A stretch of DNA of 64,000 bases from Candidatus Bathyarchaeota archaeon. GTDB lineage: Archaea; Thermoproteota; Bathyarchaeia; Bathyarchaeales; Bathycorpusculaceae. Of this stretch, positions 44,594-52,712 are shown piece after piece. Location: the NCBI GenBank assembly GCA_963777155.1, contig CAVZPM010000038.1:95537-159536 (forward strand), read 5' to 3'. The position numbers were made by a program, and so were the translations under genes. The notes beneath the pieces are model-generated. The model made no database searches and was not told the origin of the DNA. It worked only from the letters and a program-made list of their open reading frames with translations. Positions within the stretch are counted from its first letter, which is position 1. Every line of letters begins with the position of its first letter.

Positions 44594-45439
44594 ATGGCTA
44601 TAATTGAAACAAAAAACCTCACTTACACCTATCCGGGCGCCACAAAACCGTCCATTGTGGATGTCTCCATTAAGGTGGAGAAGGGAGAATTTGTTTTAAT
44701 TACAGGCCCAAGCGGCTGCGGAAAAACAACTCTGTGCCGAACCTTCAATGGACTGGTCCCACATTTCTACCAAGGTGAATTGAAAGGTGAAATATCGGTC
44801 TCTGGAATCGACACACTCAAACACCACACATACGAGATGGCAAAACACGTAGGCCTAGTTTTCCAAAACCCAGAAAACCAGCTTTTCGCCCTATCCATCG
44901 AAAAAGACGTTGCGTTCGGCTTGGAAAACGTTGGAGTGCCCCGAGAAGAAATGCGAAGAAAAGTCGATTGGGCACTAAACCAAACAGGCATCTACGATAT
45001 ACGTGAACGCTCACCCCACGAAATCTCAGGCGGACAACAGCAGCGAGTGGCAATTGCGGCTGTTTTAGCAATGGAACCAGAAATAATCGTTTTAGATGAA
45101 CCAACATCATTTCTTGACCCGTTGAGCGCTGAAAAAATTTTTGAAGTGATCTACAAGTTAAACAAGGAGCAGGGAATCACTGTCATCCTTGTCGAGCACA
45201 GGTTGGATTTGACAGCCAAGTATGCTAATCACCTTATTGTTATGGATCGAGGCATGGTTCGTTATGAAGGTGACCCAAGACAAATCCTAAGCAACGAAGA
45301 AACGCGCCTAATTGGGGTTGGAATTCCAAAGGCAACGTTGCTCTATCAGATGCTTAAAAAAGAAGGTCTAAACCTGGGTGACAGAATCCCCCTGTCTTCT
45401 GAGGAACTAGCTGACCAACTGCTGGAGGCGCTGGGGTAG
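44594..45439 (+). CDS. ecfA1: ECF transporter ATPase A
   Basis: GPSGCGKTT, FQNPENQ, ISGGQQQR, LDEPT. Confidence 0.92.
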   Translation: MAIIETKNLTYTYPGATKPSIVDVSIKVEKGEFVLITGPSGCGKTTLCRTFNGLVPHFYQGELKGEISVSGIDTLKHHTYEMAKHVGLVFQNPENQLFALSIEKDVAFGLENVGVPREEMRRKVDWALNQTGIYDIRERSPHEISGGQQQRVAIAAVLAMEPEIIVLDEPTSFLDPLSAEKIFEVIYKLNKEQGITVILVEHRLDLTAKYANHLIVMDRGMVRYEGDPRQILSNEETRLIGVGIPKATLLYQMLKKEGLNLGDRIPLSSEELADQLLEALG

Positions 45440-45441
45440 CA

Positions 45442-46264
45442 ATGATTGAAGCAAAGGACATTCGCTATTCATACATTAACAAGGTTGAAGCCCTAAAAGG
45501 CGTCTCACTCAACTATAGACGACGGCGAATTCGTCGCCATCATGGGTCAGAACGGAGCAGGAAAATCAACCCTAGTTAAACACTTCAACGGTCTCCTCAA
45601 GCCATCCAAAGGGTCCGTGCTTGTGGACGGAGTCGAAACGACCAAGTCAAGCGTTGCAGCCCTAGCACGAAACGTAGGCTTCGTCTTCCAGAACCCCGAC
45701 CACCAACTCTTCAGCGAAACCGTCGAGGAAGAAATCGCTTTTGCCCTCAAAAACTTCGGTTTTACCCAAGAAGTCATCGAGCAACGAGTCACATGGGCAC
45801 TTAACCTTCTGTCGTTAACTCAGTACCGCAAAACCTCTCCTTTCCTGCTTAGTGGCGGCGAACGAAAAAGGGTGGCACTAGCTTCGGTTCTGGCTTGGGA
45901 CCCCAAAACACTGGTCTTAGATGAGCCAACAATTGGGCAGGACCATGAGCAGAAAGAGATCCTGCGTCAATTCATAATGCAGATGCAGACCCAGAAGAAA
46001 ACCGTGGTTATAGTCACGCATGATGTGGAGTTTGTGGCTGAATGTAACCCGCGTGTAGTTTTGATGAAGGACGGCAAAATTGTTGCTGATGGGGAGGGAA
46101 AAGAGATTCTTACCGACCCTGCAATGCTTGAGTTGTCATCTATTGTTTTGCCGCAGATAGCTCAGGTTTTCACCAAGCTTGCACCACTGGGTTTTCCCAA
46201 GGACGTAATTGATATTTACGAAGCCAAACAAATAATCCTAAAAGCCAAGGAGAGAGCTCGCTGA
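45442..46264 (+). CDS. ecfA2: ECF transporter ATPase A' (frameshift near 45511)
   Basis: MIEAKDIRYSY..., then GQNGAGKST, FQNPDHQ, LSGGERKR. Confidence 0.9.
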
Positions 46265-46265
46265 C

Positions 46266-47048
46266 ATGAGCATTTTTGACGGGTTAAGGTTCCGCAAAGT
46301 TTACTCTCCAATCCATAACCTAGACCCTAGAATCAAATTCGCATACGTCATCGGCATATTCGTAGTTGCAATTCTTTTCTACCAGATTATCCCCCTACTG
46401 ATTCTGTTCTTAATGCAGATTCCCTTCGTTTTGCTGGCACGTGTACAGAGGCAGTGGCTACGTTCTCTACGGGGAGCGGCGTTTCTGGCTACATTCATCT
46501 TTGTCGTTAACGTTGCAACGACCTATTTCACATCAGGCTACCATTTAACAGCCCTAAACGTGGAGAATGCAGGTGCAATGACCCTGCGGTTTGTTGTACT
46601 GGTTGAGTCATTCTCAGTCTTCTTCCTGACCACTTCACCAGATCACCTTGGCTTGGCACTGGAAGAGTCACGCGTCCCCTACGAGTTTGCCTTCGCGTTT
46701 ACGACTGCAGTTCGCTTCGTCCCAGTTTTGGCAGAAGAAGCCCAAACCATTATGGATGCACAGAAAGCAAGAGGCTTAGAGTTGGAGAAGGGCGGCTTGC
46801 TTAAACGCATCAGGAATTATGTGCCTGTGCTTATCCCATTGATAGTTAGCGCCATCCGCAGAAGTCTTGAGTTGGCCGAGGCAATGGAGTCACGCGCATG
46901 GGGAGCAACAAAGAAGCGCACCAACCTCTATGCATTAAAGCTGCATCGGGGAGACTTCGCTCTGCTGGGAATTACTGTCGGAATAATAGTTGCAGCCATC
47001 TACATCCACTTCTTTGTACATATACCAACCATAGCTCAGTTCTTCTGA
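46266..47048 (+). CDS. ecfT: ECF transporter T component
   Basis: LDPRIK, AQKARG, AMESRA. Confidence 0.93.
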   Translation: MSIFDGLRFRKVYSPIHNLDPRIKFAYVIGIFVVAILFYQIIPLLILFLMQIPFVLLARVQRQWLRSLRGAAFLATFIFVVNVATTYFTSGYHLTALNVENAGAMTLRFVVLVESFSVFFLTTSPDHLGLALEESRVPYEFAFAFTTAVRFVPVLAEEAQTIMDAQKARGLELEKGGLLKRIRNYVPVLIPLIVSAIRRSLELAEAMESRAWGATKKRTNLYALKLHRGDFALLGITVGIIVAAIYIHFFVHIPTIAQFF

Positions 47049-48816: not shown

Positions 48817-49428
48817 CTAAGGTTTCTTAGACAGCAATCGTTCTGCTAGTTGCAACTCTGGCACTGTGTTGATGTTTACTGCGAGTTCTTGGTGGTTTAA
48901 TAGGTAGATGTCTTGGTCGAGCCATTCGTCGCCGTACCGTTTGCTGCCGTCGATGACGTTTATGCCCACTGGAACCACATCAATATCGCCGAGCTTGAAA
49001 GAGTATTCAATGCACATTCCCAACTTTGTCTTGGTTTCCACCGGAACCGCCACAGTCAAAGCGGGTTTGCCACAGCGCTCATACCGTTCCACTACAGCAT
49101 CTATCATTTCGCCCTTCACCAGCGGAAGGTCAGCTGCAATAGCTAAGAAAACACCGAGTTTGAGGGTTTGGACAACGTATCCCATGTCGGAAACGTAGTC
49201 TTTGCCTGGAGTTTCGATGACTTCAACGCCGAGTTGATGCATTAGACTTGTGGTTTTGGGAGTGCAATTGCTTGTGGCAACGATTACTCGGTCGATTTTC
49301 TTGGCGTCTCTGAGCGCTAAGAGCACATATTGAATGACGGGTTTGCCGCAGACTTCAACGAGGGGCTTTTCCTGCGCCAGCTTCATACGCGTACCCTTTC
49401 CGCCAGCCATAACAAGTGCCACTACCAT
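48817..49428 (-). CDS. cobY: Adenosylcobinamide-phosphate guanylyltransferase
   Basis: ALVMAGGKGTRM, EKPL, ADLPL, NINT; start overlaps the cobS stop. Confidence 0.88.
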   Translation of the reverse strand: MVVALVMAGGKGTRMKLAQEKPLVEVCGKPVIQYVLLALRDAKKIDRVIVATSNCTPKTTSLMHQLGVEVIETPGKDYVSDMGYVVQTLKLGVFLAIAADLPLVKGEMIDAVVERYERCGKPALTVAVPVETKTKLGMCIEYSFKLGDIDVVPVGINVIDGSKRYGDEWLDQDIYLLNHQELAVNINTVPELQLAERLLSKKP

Positions 49429-50202
49429 CAAATCACCGCCAACAAAACAACCACACAAACCAGCCTTGTCAGCTCGTTTGTGGCGCCGAACACGTCGCCC
49501 GTGACGCCGTTGAAGTGCTTGTGGGCAACGGCAACCATGACTAAACCTGTGATTAAACCTGCCACCACTACGAAGATACCAGTCAAACCGAGTAGCGGTA
49601 CAGCAATTGCAAAAGAGATTACTAACGCTACAGCCAATCGGAGGTTGCCTTCTGTTCCATGCATGGCTTCCAGAAACGGCGAGTTCATGCCTTGATGCAC
49701 TGATTTGCCTGCCCAAGCAGCCACAACCATCGACAACTTCGCGCACAACTCGACTACGATCAAGGCAGGAACAACCAAGGGAACAGCAAAATTCCCGAAA
49801 GACACATTCCTTCCGAGTTCACCAAAAGCTAAAGCTGTAACTAAATAAGTTATCAAAACCAAGCCGATAGCCCCTGCACCCGTGAACCGGTCATGCATTA
49901 CCTCAATTTTACGTTCAAACGTACCGTGTGCCATGACTCCGTCGCCGAAATCCAGCAACCCATCCATGTGATGCAGACCAGTCATCCACAAAAGTACAGC
50001 CAGAACCAAAGCGCCTGCCACGATGCCAGGCAGAAAATGGTAAGTCACCCAACCAAACAACCCCGCCAACAAACCAAGTAATGCACCGATGAGAGGGAAA
50101 AGCCCACATGTTGCGGGCGCAATCAGTAAGCAAGTCCTTGTCCATAGGAACTGGGAAAACGGTTAAGAAAGAAAGAAGGTTTTTTAGCTGTTTAACGACC
50201 AA
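49428..50202 (-). CDS. cobS: Cobalamin synthase (one frameshift near 50095)
   Basis: LSFLTVFP, TGLHHMDGLLDFGDG, MHD..TGAG, GVTGDVFGA. Confidence 0.9.
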
Positions 50203-50209
50203 GCGCGCT

Positions 50210-51298
50210 TCACTTTATGTTCATCAGTGAAGCATAGTTACGCTCTATTTCCTTAAGAAGTATATCCTTGGTAACTGCGCCACCCGTCTTAGCCATCGCC
50301 GCAATCGAGGCTCCGCCTGCACCAACGCCTTCTTTGACAAGCCCAGTTTCATAGATCCGCAAGCCAGGATACTTTGAGGAACCAAAATCCAAGTCAGCCG
50401 CTATCACGGGCACTTGACAGAACTGTTTAACAATACCGCAGATGTCGGACTTGACGTCCTTTGCAACCCATCTGGTAGTGCCCACTGCAACGTTACAAAG
50501 TGATTCAGGGTTAAGGGCATTAATCACCGCCAAAACCGCAGTCATCTGGGTTCCGCCAGCCATCAAAACAGGTCCCTGCCTGGCGCCACCGATAACTAAC
50601 CCCGCCATAGCCGCCATCATTGGGTCACCCACACAAGAGACAGCTTTAAGGGGGTTGCCTTTTAGGCTACCGAATTTTTCGCCTGCCGCCTTCAATCCAG
50701 CTGCAACCACTTCTGCCTTCAAACTATGAGGATTCTCAGGCAGAGTGCTACTAACTTTGCCCTGAGCGTTAATGCCTAAAGCCGACAGAACACCGAGGGC
50801 TGTTGTGGTTCCGCCTGGAATGCTCTCACCTATAACAAGATAATCGGCCACTTTCGCTAGTTGTTCACCTAAAACCTTGCCACGCTCGATAACTTCCTCA
50901 ACATTGTCAACAGAGTTGCCGGTACGGATGTCGCGTCCAGAGTTACCACCTAAGTCAACGTAAGGAATCTGGGGCTTAACCTTCACGCCGCCGTTGACAA
51001 CCAACACTGGTATGTCGGCTAAATGCAATGCCGAGGTGGTTATCAAGCCTGGTGTCGGAATGCCGTCAGGAGTAATGGGGACCCCTTGTATGGATTTGCA
51101 CTTGCCCAACAGCAACAGTTCCGCGTCTGCTGGAGGAGTGAAATCGGTAAAATCTGGGTTTGCACCAGCGGCCGACAAACCGGGGATTTTCCCAGTTTCA
51201 GTTGTGGCAATTGTGCAGATGAAAAGAGGATTTTTGGCCTCTATCTCGTCTAGGAATGCTTTTGCTTTCAACTCGTTATTCGCAATTAGGACATCCAT
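50210..51298 (-). CDS. cobT: Archaeal nicotinate-nucleotide:DMB phosphoribosyltransferase
   Basis: GESIPGGTTTA, MAGGTQM, VKEGVGAGG. Confidence 0.92.
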   Translation of the reverse strand: MDVLIANNELKAKAFLDEIEAKNPLFICTIATTETGKIPGLSAAGANPDFTDFTPPADAELLLLGKCKSIQGVPITPDGIPTPGLITTSALHLADIPVLVVNGGVKVKPQIPYVDLGGNSGRDIRTGNSVDNVEEVIERGKVLGEQLAKVADYLVIGESIPGGTTTALGVLSALGINAQGKVSSTLPENPHSLKAEVVAAGLKAAGEKFGSLKGNPLKAVSCVGDPMMAAMAGLVIGGARQGPVLMAGGTQMTAVLAVINALNPESLCNVAVGTTRWVAKDVKSDICGIVKQFCQVPVIAADLDFGSSKYPGLRIYETGLVKEGVGAGGASIAAMAKTGGAVTKDILLKEIERNYASLMNIK

Positions 51299-51309
51299 CT
51301 TAGTTCCCT

Positions 51310-51981
51310 TTACTTGGGCACAACTTTGAACTTCTTGATTTCCAAGTGTCCAAAGCCACCCTCAAGCTTATGTTTCTGCGTTTCTTGGATTTCAATCTTG
51401 TTCTTGAAGGTGGGACCATCCGTTATGACGGTGTGGTATTCGCCACCTTCTCCGCATGCGTCCACGTTGCCAAGTTTTAGAATATCGTCATAGAACTTTC
51501 GATCTAATGTTCTACCCAGCCATTCTACGCCTAAAAGGTCCAGTTTTGTTCGGACAACGGTTGCTTTAAAGCCTGTCTTTAAGTAATCAAGATAAATCTT
51601 TTTAGTGTCACCCATCCAAAGCGGTTTTACGGCTGTTAAGCCGACTTCTTTGCATATCCGGCCCAACCAACCTTCCTCATGCCCAGCGACTTCATAGATA
51701 TCGCCCGTAACTAAGCCCTGTGCACCCTTTGCCTTGCATTCAAACAGCACTGCCTTGAAGTCCTTCTCATAGGTCGCTGCGGATGTAGTTTTCTTTATAA
51801 GTGGTATTCCTATGGCTTCTGCCTGTGCGTCTAGAATGCCTGCTGGTATCATGTGGAAATTTGATTTGGTTTCGCTCATCATCATAGTTAACAGGTTGAT
51901 TACTTGGTGACCCTGTTGGGTAGCCAATAGGTATGCGTAGGCGCTATCTTTGCCGCCACTCCATGAAGCAACAACTTTCAT
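51310..51981 (-). CDS. DUF71/Dph6-like PP-loop ATPase heading the cob operon
   Basis: SWSGGKDS, TGDI, PLW, DACGEGGEYHT; AGGAGG SD before ATG 51981. Confidence 0.85.
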   Translation of the reverse strand: MKVVASWSGGKDSAYAYLLATQQGHQVINLLTMMMSETKSNFHMIPAGILDAQAEAIGIPLIKKTTSAATYEKDFKAVLFECKAKGAQGLVTGDIYEVAGHEEGWLGRICKEVGLTAVKPLWMGDTKKIYLDYLKTGFKATVVRTKLDLLGVEWLGRTLDRKFYDDILKLGNVDACGEGGEYHTVITDGPTFKNKIEIQETQKHKLEGGFGHLEIKKFKVVPK

Positions 51982-51993
51982 ATTCAGTTTTTT

Positions 51994-52134
51994 CCTCCTT
52001 TTCATATGGGAACGTTCAAACAGACAAATAGGGCTTTGCTGGTCAAACATTCAGATAACTTGCCACAAAGTAAAACTTTGAACGATATGAGCAAGGTTTT
52101 CTTTATGTTTAACGAGTTTTCTCCCCTCTGTCTG
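51994..52134 (-). ncRNA. Candidate structured 5' leader / cis-regulatory RNA
   Basis: Four nested helices with G-U wobbles on the minus strand plus an alternative helix reaching the SD; folded by eye only. Confidence 0.45.
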
Positions 52135-52150
52135 GTTGGTTTATCCAACC
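52134..52150. promoter_or_regulatory. Palindrome just downstream of a minus-strand TATA-like box
   Basis: GGTTGG-TTTAT-CCAACC; minus-strand TTATAT at 52156-52161. Confidence 0.45.
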
Positions 52151-52229
52151 TTTTCATATAAGTATATCGGCAATTGCTGTTCACAACACTTAAAACAGTC
52201 ACCGCGACTAAAAATTAAGGTTAAACTGT

Positions 52230-52712
52230 ATGACGAAACAAACCCCGCCCCTGCTGACCTACCTTGAAGAGAGAGGCATCACACTTCAAAGCCTAATCGA
52301 AAGCGCGCTTGAAATGTATGTACCTCATCCAGGAGTAGAAACCCCTGAGAAAGCCACAAAGCTGCTTGAAGAAGAGTTTCTCGACATTCTAGAAGACGTA
52401 AACGTCTCCACGTTAATCGTTGCTGCTTTTCACGCCCAAGAAGAAGCAGAGAACGGACGGATTCCAGGGTTAACCAAAGAACGGTTTCTGGGTAGACCGG
52501 GTTTAGTTGCAGACGAACTTATCGGGATAGCCGTTGCCACCTACATCGGTGGATCCAGAGGCATGTTCGAATTTGTTCGCTTTGACCAAGCAAAACCAGG
52601 AATCCTAAAGCAGTTGCCACCCCTAACTAATGACGCGATTGGCGCTTTGGTTGCTGGCGCATCCTCGAACGTCTACACAAATGCTCTCAAGACCACAGAA
52701 GCAAAACCGTAA
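52230..52712 (+). CDS. cobZ: Alpha-ribazole phosphatase (PgpA-like CobZ)
   Basis: DVNVSTL, LVADELIG, FEFVRFDQAKPGIL; cob gene context. Confidence 0.8.
   Translation: MTKQTPPLLTYLEERGITLQSLIESALEMYVPHPGVETPEKATKLLEEEFLDILEDVNVSTLIVAAFHAQEEAENGRIPGLTKERFLGRPGLVADELIGIAVATYIGGSRGMFEFVRFDQAKPGILKQLPPLTNDAIGALVAGASSNVYTNALKTTEAKP

Follow-up and report, generated by a model that had tools for sequence, protein, structure and literature searches.

A conserved promoter palindrome and a putatively translated leader ORF in front of an archaeal corrinoid-salvage operon

How archaea regulate the uptake and salvage of cobalamin is, to our knowledge, largely unknown, and the locus described here raises the question of whether the leader of a cobalamin-related operon acts as a riboswitch or in some other way. 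The DNA analysed, hereafter the window, is a stretch of 64,000 nucleotides from contig C38 of the assembly of a Candidatus Bathyarchaeota archaeon (2.29 Mb in 39 contigs; G000). Within it, a 250-bp intergenic region separates a minus-strand cob operon from a divergent, plus-strand cobZ-like gene, and the minus-strand leader in this region had been predicted to be a two-state structured RNA with a helix that competes for the Shine-Dalgarno (SD) sequence of the operon, that is, an undescribed translational switch. The original prediction placed the leader before a cobalamin operon; cobT, cobS and a cobY-like gene are indeed present, but the first gene encodes a Dph6-like protein of family PF01902 and the cob genes come after it. 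Comparison with relatives points to a different reading, to which we assign a probability of about 0.6: the operon appears to be under two-layer control, exerted by an operator in the promoter and by a translated leader open reading frame (ORF).

The genus to which this archaeon belongs comprises 120 species genomes, of which 108 carry an orthologue of the PF01902 gene. Usable upstream regions were gathered for 105 of them, and the block CTTATATGAAAAGGTTGGATAAACCAACC was present in 81; this count is a lower bound, since a few of the other 24 regions hold a leader yet missed the motif filter, while the rest have a different promoter and lack the leader. Seventy-nine of the 81 block-bearing leaders, each at least 140 nt long and all from this one genus, were aligned and constitute the set of relatives used below. 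Their aligned core is nearly indel-free over ~113 nt, though much of the sequence varies freely. In 24 of 36 genomes of the genus, the DNA ahead of the orthologue matched the leader; a covariance model of the leader found one copy each in four of ten sampled genomes of the genus and no copy in the 110 genomes searched from 54 further genera of the same order. Public DNA runs containing the leader stretch are labelled as wetland, peat and soil metagenomes. In its own genome the leader is single-copy (one covariance-model hit; seven BLAST matches at E <= 10, the sole long one being the locus itself). These searches bear on a mobile origin, which the original prediction had itself proposed to check by looking for copies in unrelated contexts: the repeat ATATGAAAAGG lies on both sides of a long imperfect hairpin, as expected for a miniature inverted-repeat transposable element (MITE) or other insertion with an 11-bp target duplication. 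The first copy of the repeat, however, is part of the conserved promoter, the second is missing from the closest relatives, and orthologues of the element occupy this locus across the genus, which together with its single copy effectively refutes this explanation.

The frame conserved in the relatives reads GAT AAT TTG CTG AAC, in which TTG is an in-frame start in 73 of the 79 leaders and, in several of them, the sole possible one, with a stop one or two codons upstream. The 15 nt before TTG (typically containing GGTGAT) pair with the tail of 16S rRNA at -5 kcal/mol or lower in 58/79 leaders, a level reached in just 5.8% of 2148 control windows inside the leaders. For this analysis the 16S 3' end came from three complete genomes within the genus, in all of which it reads GGATCACCTCCT, the 16S gene not having been found in the window's assembly; the segment GGAUCACCUCCU was used for pairing. 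An ATG within the TATA box (52157-52155) was rejected as the start, being in frame in 21/79 leaders only, about the one third that chance would give. Counted over the first 36 codons, the leader frame is free of stops in 68 leaders, versus none and five in the other two frames, with a mean of 0.24 stops per leader versus 3.01 and 2.22; the ORF from TTG reaches at least 36 codons in 65. The same frame continues into the length-variable extension of the 53 long leaders, which is stop-free in 37, versus six and one in the other frames. The leader ORF is therefore very probably under selection to stay open.

The position at which the ORF ends was recorded in all 79 leaders as the end of the stop codon, counted from the first enzyme gene's ATG, and it falls between -16 and +4 in 52 of them. 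Fifteen stops end at +4, forming an ATGA overlap, two at +1, seven at -1 to -5, and 28 at -12 to -16, inside the SD of the gene (CTTAGGGAGG). Stops are found further upstream at -20 to -31 in six leaders, at -40 to -58 in another six and earlier than -75 in 12, and the remaining three have no stop. A translated ORF that is coupled to its downstream neighbour is recognised by just such features, namely a start backed by an SD, a frame without stops and a stop codon at the ribosome site that follows, and we regard it as moderately probable that ribosomes translate the leader ORF and that the first enzyme gene is coupled to it. In the three leaders without a stop (L030, L098 and L114) the ORF runs in frame into the enzyme gene, which could be a fusion or mere loss of the stop.

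An open frame might also arise as a by-product of composition and ancestry in an untranslated 5' untranslated region (UTR) that carries sites for a protein, a small RNA or an auxiliary operator. Pseudo-sequences resampled by column, in which nothing but column composition is kept, are already open in 57% of cases; the 79 leaders are kin with an effective number of ~10, and their statistics overstate independence; and the ORF is not intact in the window and in some relatives. The boxes AAACAU and AUGUUU recur, and by eye GATAAT/ATTATC looks like the core of the operator, as auxiliary sites might. Against this, 93% of the 70 real rows (those without unusual indels) are open, the other frames hold two to three stops per sequence, the frame stays open through the variable-length extension in 37/53, 52/79 stops gather around the ribosome site or start of the next gene, and the SD lies at the right distance from TTG. 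An untranslated leader of this kind is, in our judgement, rather unlikely.

If the ORF is translated, it could simply be the first gene of the operon and encode a small protein (43-70 aa) that evolves fast and takes part in corrinoid salvage. Its open frame, SD and start are conserved, and gene prediction in metagenomes lists it as a hypothetical protein (6 clusters, 64-67 aa); a profile search among 1.84 billion representatives found 50, all but one of 44-90 aa, many of which were called from the TATA-box ATG that happens to be in frame. Moreover, the columns L2, N3, L24, K27 and V35 are nearly invariant, and the motifs FHVHLKP and VEGEVT recur. The invariant columns, however, are invariant as nucleotides as well, third positions included, and the entropy by codon position in the leader ORF (0.94/0.92/0.93) has no periodicity, whereas the neighbouring enzyme gene of the same species is clearly periodic (0.36/0.20/0.78). 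The ratio of nonsynonymous to synonymous changes (dN/dS) is 0.76, as in the wrong frames (0.68 and 0.78). Short forms of the ORF lack the C-terminal half, and neither the window nor 12/79 relatives have it intact. The peptide belongs to no known family: nine versions gave no match in Pfam, and the NCBIfam search of nine peptides returned one sub-threshold hit in one of them (L10 model, 13.7 bits, cut-off 381). An AlphaFold model from a 60-row alignment was not confident (predicted local distance difference test score, pLDDT, 57; predicted template modelling score, pTM, 0.23). What is conserved in the leader is the open frame, the initiation signals and nucleotide blocks at all three codon positions. 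Given the lack of periodicity and the wrong-frame-like dN/dS, selection appears to act on translation of the leader and on embedded RNA- or DNA-level signals, not on the peptide, and a functional small protein is unlikely.

Upstream of the ORF lies the other component of the proposed control. The palindrome listed in Table 1 starts 5 nt after TTATAT, and its end (52134) coincides with the start site expected for an archaeal promoter, in which transcription begins at a characteristic distance from the TATA box. Transcription would begin at ~52133/52134, in agreement with the promoter conserved across the genus; the original prediction had named the same TATA box and a start near 52134, and its placing of a cis-regulatory leader on the strand of the operon is likewise borne out by the relatives, in which the leader is conserved. 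The consensus of the palindrome is fully palindromic and leaves no space for a hairpin loop; its core TGGATAATCCA is fixed, and position 3 of the arm varies without a compensating change. There are three good palindrome sites in the genome, every one right behind a TATA-like box. Of the two outside the cob promoter, one (C34:22585-22601, equivalent to locus L139:2586-2602) precedes an operon for a BtuF-like binding protein, a FecCD permease, an ATP-binding cassette (ABC) ATPase, a DUF2284 protein and CbiZ, and the other (C9:158393-158409, locus L140) precedes a gene for a secreted pyrroloquinoline quinone (PQQ)-type beta-propeller protein, followed by aminoimidazole ribonucleotide (AIR)-synthase-family genes.

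In 25/30 orthologous BtuF-like loci within the genus, the TATA box is followed after 3-6 nt by the palindrome (GGnTGGATAATCCAnCC), whose distance from the start codon further downstream is 17-32 nt in 24 of these 25 and 55 nt in the remaining one. The btuFCD-cbiZ operon has the promoter palindrome in common with the cob operon, but not the leader RNA. Standing at a fixed promoter place in functionally linked operons (cob, 81/105; btuF-like, 25/30), the palindrome is probably the operator of a putative dimeric repressor with a small regulon for corrinoid uptake and salvage, and repression of both corrinoid operons through it is predicted to be likely. As a candidate operator, it would link btuFCD-cbiZ uptake to nucleotide-loop assembly by cobT-cobS-cobY. 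Archaeal repressors such as MDR1, NrpR, TrmB and Phr act at promoter-proximal operators; the palindrome resembles their sites in lying directly behind the TATA box and overlapping the start, here in functionally connected operons that serve to take up and salvage corrinoids. In 2003, Rodionov et al. reportedly predicted a 'CBL-box' for a postulated regulator of B12 genes in archaea.

Two further observations concern these promoters. Three near-identical copies of ~70 nt with GTTGATAAACCAACCAGAGCC (C22:22324-22354, C28:9745-9759 and C17:27412-27426) have 15 nt in common with the palindrome region; each lies near a PF01902 paralogue, and they may be coding. In ten members of the genus (L027, L033, L035, L036, L094, L095, L105, L111, L124 and L125), the orthologous gene has no leader upstream and another promoter motif is found, AAAACATTAAnCTTTAAAT ... 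TTAATGTTAAC, an inverted repeat around a TATA-like box.

We then consider the RNA fold, from which the switch had been proposed. The TTATAT at 52161-52156, the helices and the 11-nt repeat were all found where the original prediction had placed them, and RNAfold reproduced the nested fold in the 166-nt RNA of the window (-42.7 kcal/mol, z-score -3.95; 0/200 shuffles fold as well). The opposite strand folds at -41.1 kcal/mol (z -2.81), so that the fold is above chance and the mRNA strand is favoured, as claimed, but only slightly. The fold did not prove to be a property of the family. Over the 79 leaders the mean z is -1.05 for the sense and -0.62 for the antisense strand, and z is -2 or lower in 16/79 only, while the window, at z -4.8 on the segment used for the relatives, is an outlier among them, indicating that the nested fold is mostly window-specific. 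RNAalifold gave no consensus structure for 25 leaders and, for all 79, only one helix of 9-10 bp (A-A') and a 4-bp stem; the innermost hairpins of the window fold are not conserved in relatives.

One structural theme does recur, namely pairing over the start of the leader ORF. The strongest common helix pairs GAUAAUUUGC, which comprises the end of the SD, the spacer and TTG, with GCAAAUUAUC, located ~55 nt downstream in the codons G-K-L-S, and is often extended by CAAACAU/AUGUUUG. With the extension, 77.6% of its alignment cells are paired, compared with 75.7 +/- 0.5% in shuffles (0/500 as high) and 27-46% in slid controls; double changes are not more frequent in it than in the latter, and G-U outnumbers A-C by 73 to 32. 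A second group of leaders, the window included, lacks the GCAAAUUAUC partner and pairs UUGCUAAACAU with AUGUUUGGCAA, and also the SD region with codons around F-x-C. The first helix is kept in 40/79 leaders, the alternative in 17/79, both in two and neither strongly in 24 (r = -0.35). Pairing at the leader ORF's ribosome site has a probability of 0.72, versus 0.63 once the downstream leader is shuffled; the native value is the higher one in 64/79. Among the helices of the window fold, the outer one was compared in the 15 relatives with the same 3' block, where the species' own arms pair at -9.17 kcal/mol versus -7.33 kcal/mol across species (median rank 0.27), suggesting modest covariation within this 15-member subgroup. 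Masking of the start of the leader ORF is thus, with moderate support from the alignment, a recurring structural theme; that the masking has a regulatory role we propose only tentatively, at somewhat less than even odds.

The long-form leaders (e.g. L016, L017 and L020) have in addition a conserved hairpin, UUCACCU...AGGGUGAA, within the leader ORF ~60-20 nt before the enzyme gene. It spans the codons FHVHLKP ... VEGEVT, its 3' arm resembles the SD that follows, and compensatory changes were noted by eye, e.g. from AACC/GGUU to AAUC/GAUU in L083.

These pairings might still belong to a new metabolite-binding riboswitch, in which the conserved blocks would form an aptamer for a corrinoid or a lower ligand and the ligand would switch the pairing of the ribosome site. 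Such a riboswitch would account for block conservation at all codon positions, which points to a function at the RNA or DNA level, for a ribosome site held in conserved pairing with G-U in excess of A-C, for the alternative partners of one segment, for the cobalamin operon context and for the good folding of the window RNA. The supposed aptamer, however, is kept open for translation in 65-68/79 relatives, which are of ordinary fold stability and yield a near-nil consensus structure. The leader occurs at one locus per genome and in one genus, and the btuFCD-cbiZ operon has a leader of only 17-29 nt (55 nt at one locus), sharing the palindrome and not the RNA. The competing anti-SD helix, on which the predicted switch depended, has no covariation, pairing at -8.74 kcal/mol with its own SD and at -8.70 kcal/mol with those of other species (median rank 0.48). 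That no known cobalamin riboswitch is present was stated in the original prediction and agrees with our searches: no Rfam family matched at the gathering score in the whole window, and at a relaxed threshold (E up to 10) positions 51900-52300 (401 nt) gave a microRNA model at E 0.42 and noise, and no cobalamin model. No result obtained here favours ligand binding, and we consider a riboswitch highly improbable. The notion of a translational switch holds in so far as masking of a ribosome site by RNA is plausible; the masked site, however, belongs to the leader ORF and not to the enzyme gene.

The window's own copy differs from those of its relatives in several respects (Table 1). At the position of the conserved TTG it has TCG, as has a 1221-nt contig from a public DNA run that is 98% identical to the window and may come from the same sample as its assembly. 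In its two closest relatives (L064 and L065; enzyme 96% identical), TTG is intact and opens an ORF of 43 codons ending 2 nt upstream of the ATG. The repeat ATATGAAAAGG occurs twice in the window (52159-52149 and 52007-51997) and nowhere else in the genome, and both relatives lack its second copy. In the window the leader ORF may have been inactivated and the RNA may have drifted to a more stable hairpin; the very stable nested fold is a lineage-specific feature.

On the two-layer reading, the stretch would be the promoter and leader of a corrinoid-salvage operon consisting of the leader ORF, the gene for the Dph6-like ATPase, cobT, cobS and the cobY-like gene, with cobZ divergent. The mechanism that we infer, from ORF translation and coupling to repressor binding and the signal sensed, would run as follows. 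In the first layer, a B recognition element (BRE)/TATA promoter is followed by the 17-bp palindrome ending at the predicted start, an arrangement common to the btuFCD-DUF2284-cbiZ promoter, and a dimeric repressor at the palindrome would control a small corrinoid regulon. In the second layer, the transcript would have a ~20-nt 5' UTR with an SD, followed by a leader ORF of 43-70 codons that begins at TTG. Its stop would coincide with the ribosome site or start codon of the first enzyme gene, or precede it by a few bases, and ribosomes finishing the leader would then be handed on. Some of the conserved blocks would form pairs with the ribosome site and start codon that serve the leader ORF itself, so that initiation is limited or gated. 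A more elaborate version, in which the blocks in the translated leader form a ligand- or protein-responsive switch that gates TTG initiation, with leader translation setting salvage-enzyme expression by coupling, is very unlikely; if true, it would amount to an archaeal attenuation-like device with its sensor in a translated leader, atop a new B12-regulon repressor.

Several results weigh against the two-layer reading. As to the ORF, the 57% open frames given by column composition and the small effective number of leaders were mentioned above; stops come early in 12/79 leaders, the frame reads through into the enzyme gene in 3/79, and the window itself lacks TTG, which together imply that the ORF is dispensable in some lineages. 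The RNA contigs of two metatranscriptomes lie only on 51305-51981, the enzyme gene, and leave the leader and its start uncovered. As to coupling, the enzyme gene has a strong SD of its own (in 76/79, the region ahead of the orthologue's start binds the 16S tail at -5 kcal/mol or lower), making coupling unnecessary for its translation, and 28 stops lie 12-16 nt upstream of its ATG. Translational coupling through termination-reinitiation has been reported for archaea (PMC6728339, PMC10666635), and the title of the latter speaks of overlaps or very short distances as a requirement. As to the pairings, helix covariation is weak: the 11-bp version of the second helix is conserved without covariation, with 73.2% of cells paired versus 73.3% in shuffles, and when own and cross-species duplexes are compared for the remaining pairings proposed, the difference is close to neutral over all 79 leaders and modest in the 15-member subgroup. 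The model does not account for the conserved blocks AAGAAAA, UCAAAG, AGUAAAAC, the U run and GUUUC, nor for the UUCACCU...AGGGUGAA hairpin before the SD of the long forms. As to the promoter, no repressor was identified for the palindrome, no search for a candidate regulator having been made.

Several known systems bear comparison with the locus. In bacteria, leader ORFs such as trpL, mgtL in the mgtA leader and ermCL control the genes downstream of them. The present ORF is like these in that it is short and heads an operon, that its translation rather than its product seems to matter, and that alternative pairings of the leader RNA are possible; it differs in being archaeal and long (43-70 codons), in preceding a gene with its own SD, and in that neither a diagnostic codon run nor a terminator hairpin was identified in the leader. 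Stops that overlap or abut the next start (ATGA in 15/79) recall the termination-reinitiation coupling of the two articles named above. In the RNA phage MS2, a long-range pairing between the coat gene and the replicase start masks the latter until translation opens it. Here too a ribosome site pairs with a downstream coding segment that a passing ribosome would open, but the masked site belongs to the very ORF that carries the masking segment, and the pairing is deduced from conservation with weak covariation. With the cobalamin riboswitch RF00174 and its variants the leader shares a place before cobalamin-related genes and a pairing that could mask a ribosome site; it differs in having no Rfam match, in a frame kept open for predicted translation in relatives, and in its restriction to one locus in one archaeal genus. 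No block resembling the B12 box was seen in the leader by eye, no pattern search having been run; nor does the leader recur before several B12 units of the genome, as RF00174-type elements would, being present as a single copy. A literature search gave no paper on an archaeal cobalamin riboswitch among the ten listed.

At this locus the bacterial solution, a B12 riboswitch, does not apply, and the riboswitch reading is not upheld; the locus instead appears to combine a conserved promoter-operator with a putatively translated leader, a bacterial-style device in an archaeon. We know of hardly any documented archaeal case of a leader ORF kept open without conservation of its peptide, a form of control well known in bacteria. 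The candidate operator palindrome and the leader ORF are two testable handles in a widespread genus. The locus also cautions those who hunt for RNA motifs, as a fold that is convincing in one genome proved mostly lineage-specific and lies over a frame with a non-ATG start.

Table 1. Features of the operon and its leader in the window (positions of the 64,000-nucleotide stretch)
Feature	Coordinates	Strand	Remarks
TATA box TTATAT of operon promoter	52156..52161	minus	block CTTATATGAAAAGG conserved in 81/105 orthologous upstream regions
17-bp palindrome GGTTGGATAAACCAACC, candidate repressor operator	52134..52150		no strand; between TATA box and predicted transcription start
Predicted transcription start	52133	minus	from TATA-to-start distance
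5' arm of outer helix, CAGACAGAGGGG	52123..52134	minus	over 5' UTR and SD of leader ORF
SD-like GAGGGGAG of leader ORF	52121..52128	minus	pairs with 16S tail at -7.2 kcal/mol in the window
TCG at conserved TTG start position	52113..52115	minus	start lost in the window
5' arm of second helix, GUUAAACAU	52105..52113	minus	over start-codon position and codons 2-3
3' arm of second helix, AUGUUUGAC	52042..52050	minus	within leader ORF
3' arm of outer helix, CCCUAUUUGUCUG	52021..52033	minus	within leader ORF, codons L-F-V-C
Leader frame in the window	52002..52115	minus	37 sense codons and TGA (52004-52002); ends 20 nt before next ATG
Second ATATGAAAAGG copy	51997..52007	minus	contains TGA of leader ORF and start of SD; specific to the window
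SD AAGGAGG of PF01902 gene	51994..52000	minus	read in the sequence
First enzyme gene, PP-loop ATP pyrophosphatase, Dph6 family	51310..51981	minus	PF01902, E 6.8e-50; ATG 51981-51979
CobT, archaeal type	50210..51298	minus	TIGR00303, 403.6 bits (cut-off 240)
CobS	49428..50072	minus	TIGR00317, 121.6 bits (cut-off 110), profile positions 51-240; PF02654 match
CobY-like nucleotidyltransferase	48817..49431	minus	NTP_transf_3 match; CobY model NF045495, 114 bits, below cut-off 250
CobZ-like alpha-ribazole phosphatase, divergent	52230..52712	plus	TIGR03161, 137.9 bits, slightly below cut-off 152.5

As regards the genes of the operon, the first enzyme gene scored 141.6 bits with the Dph6 model TIGR03679 and probably encodes a Dph6 paralogue, because this score falls under the equivalog cut-off of 197.3. 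The CobS ORF leaves the N-terminal part of the TIGR00317 profile uncovered, and the truncated match may reflect a frameshift, an unusual N-terminus or an assembly error. Directly after cobT, another ORF (49915-50202), which has no Pfam match, overlaps the CobS ORF within the region 49428-50202. At a distance of 5 kb from the cob genes, the opposite strand carries two genes for ABC ATPases and one for a CbiQ-family transmembrane protein (44594-47048), which make up a predicted energy-coupling factor (ECF) or cobalt-type transporter module. Between the divergent genes, a genus-wide conserved block reads GTTTGTTTTAAGTGTTGTGA on the minus strand (52178-52197) and CACTTAAAACA on the plus strand, the latter being likely the TATA region of the cobZ-like gene.

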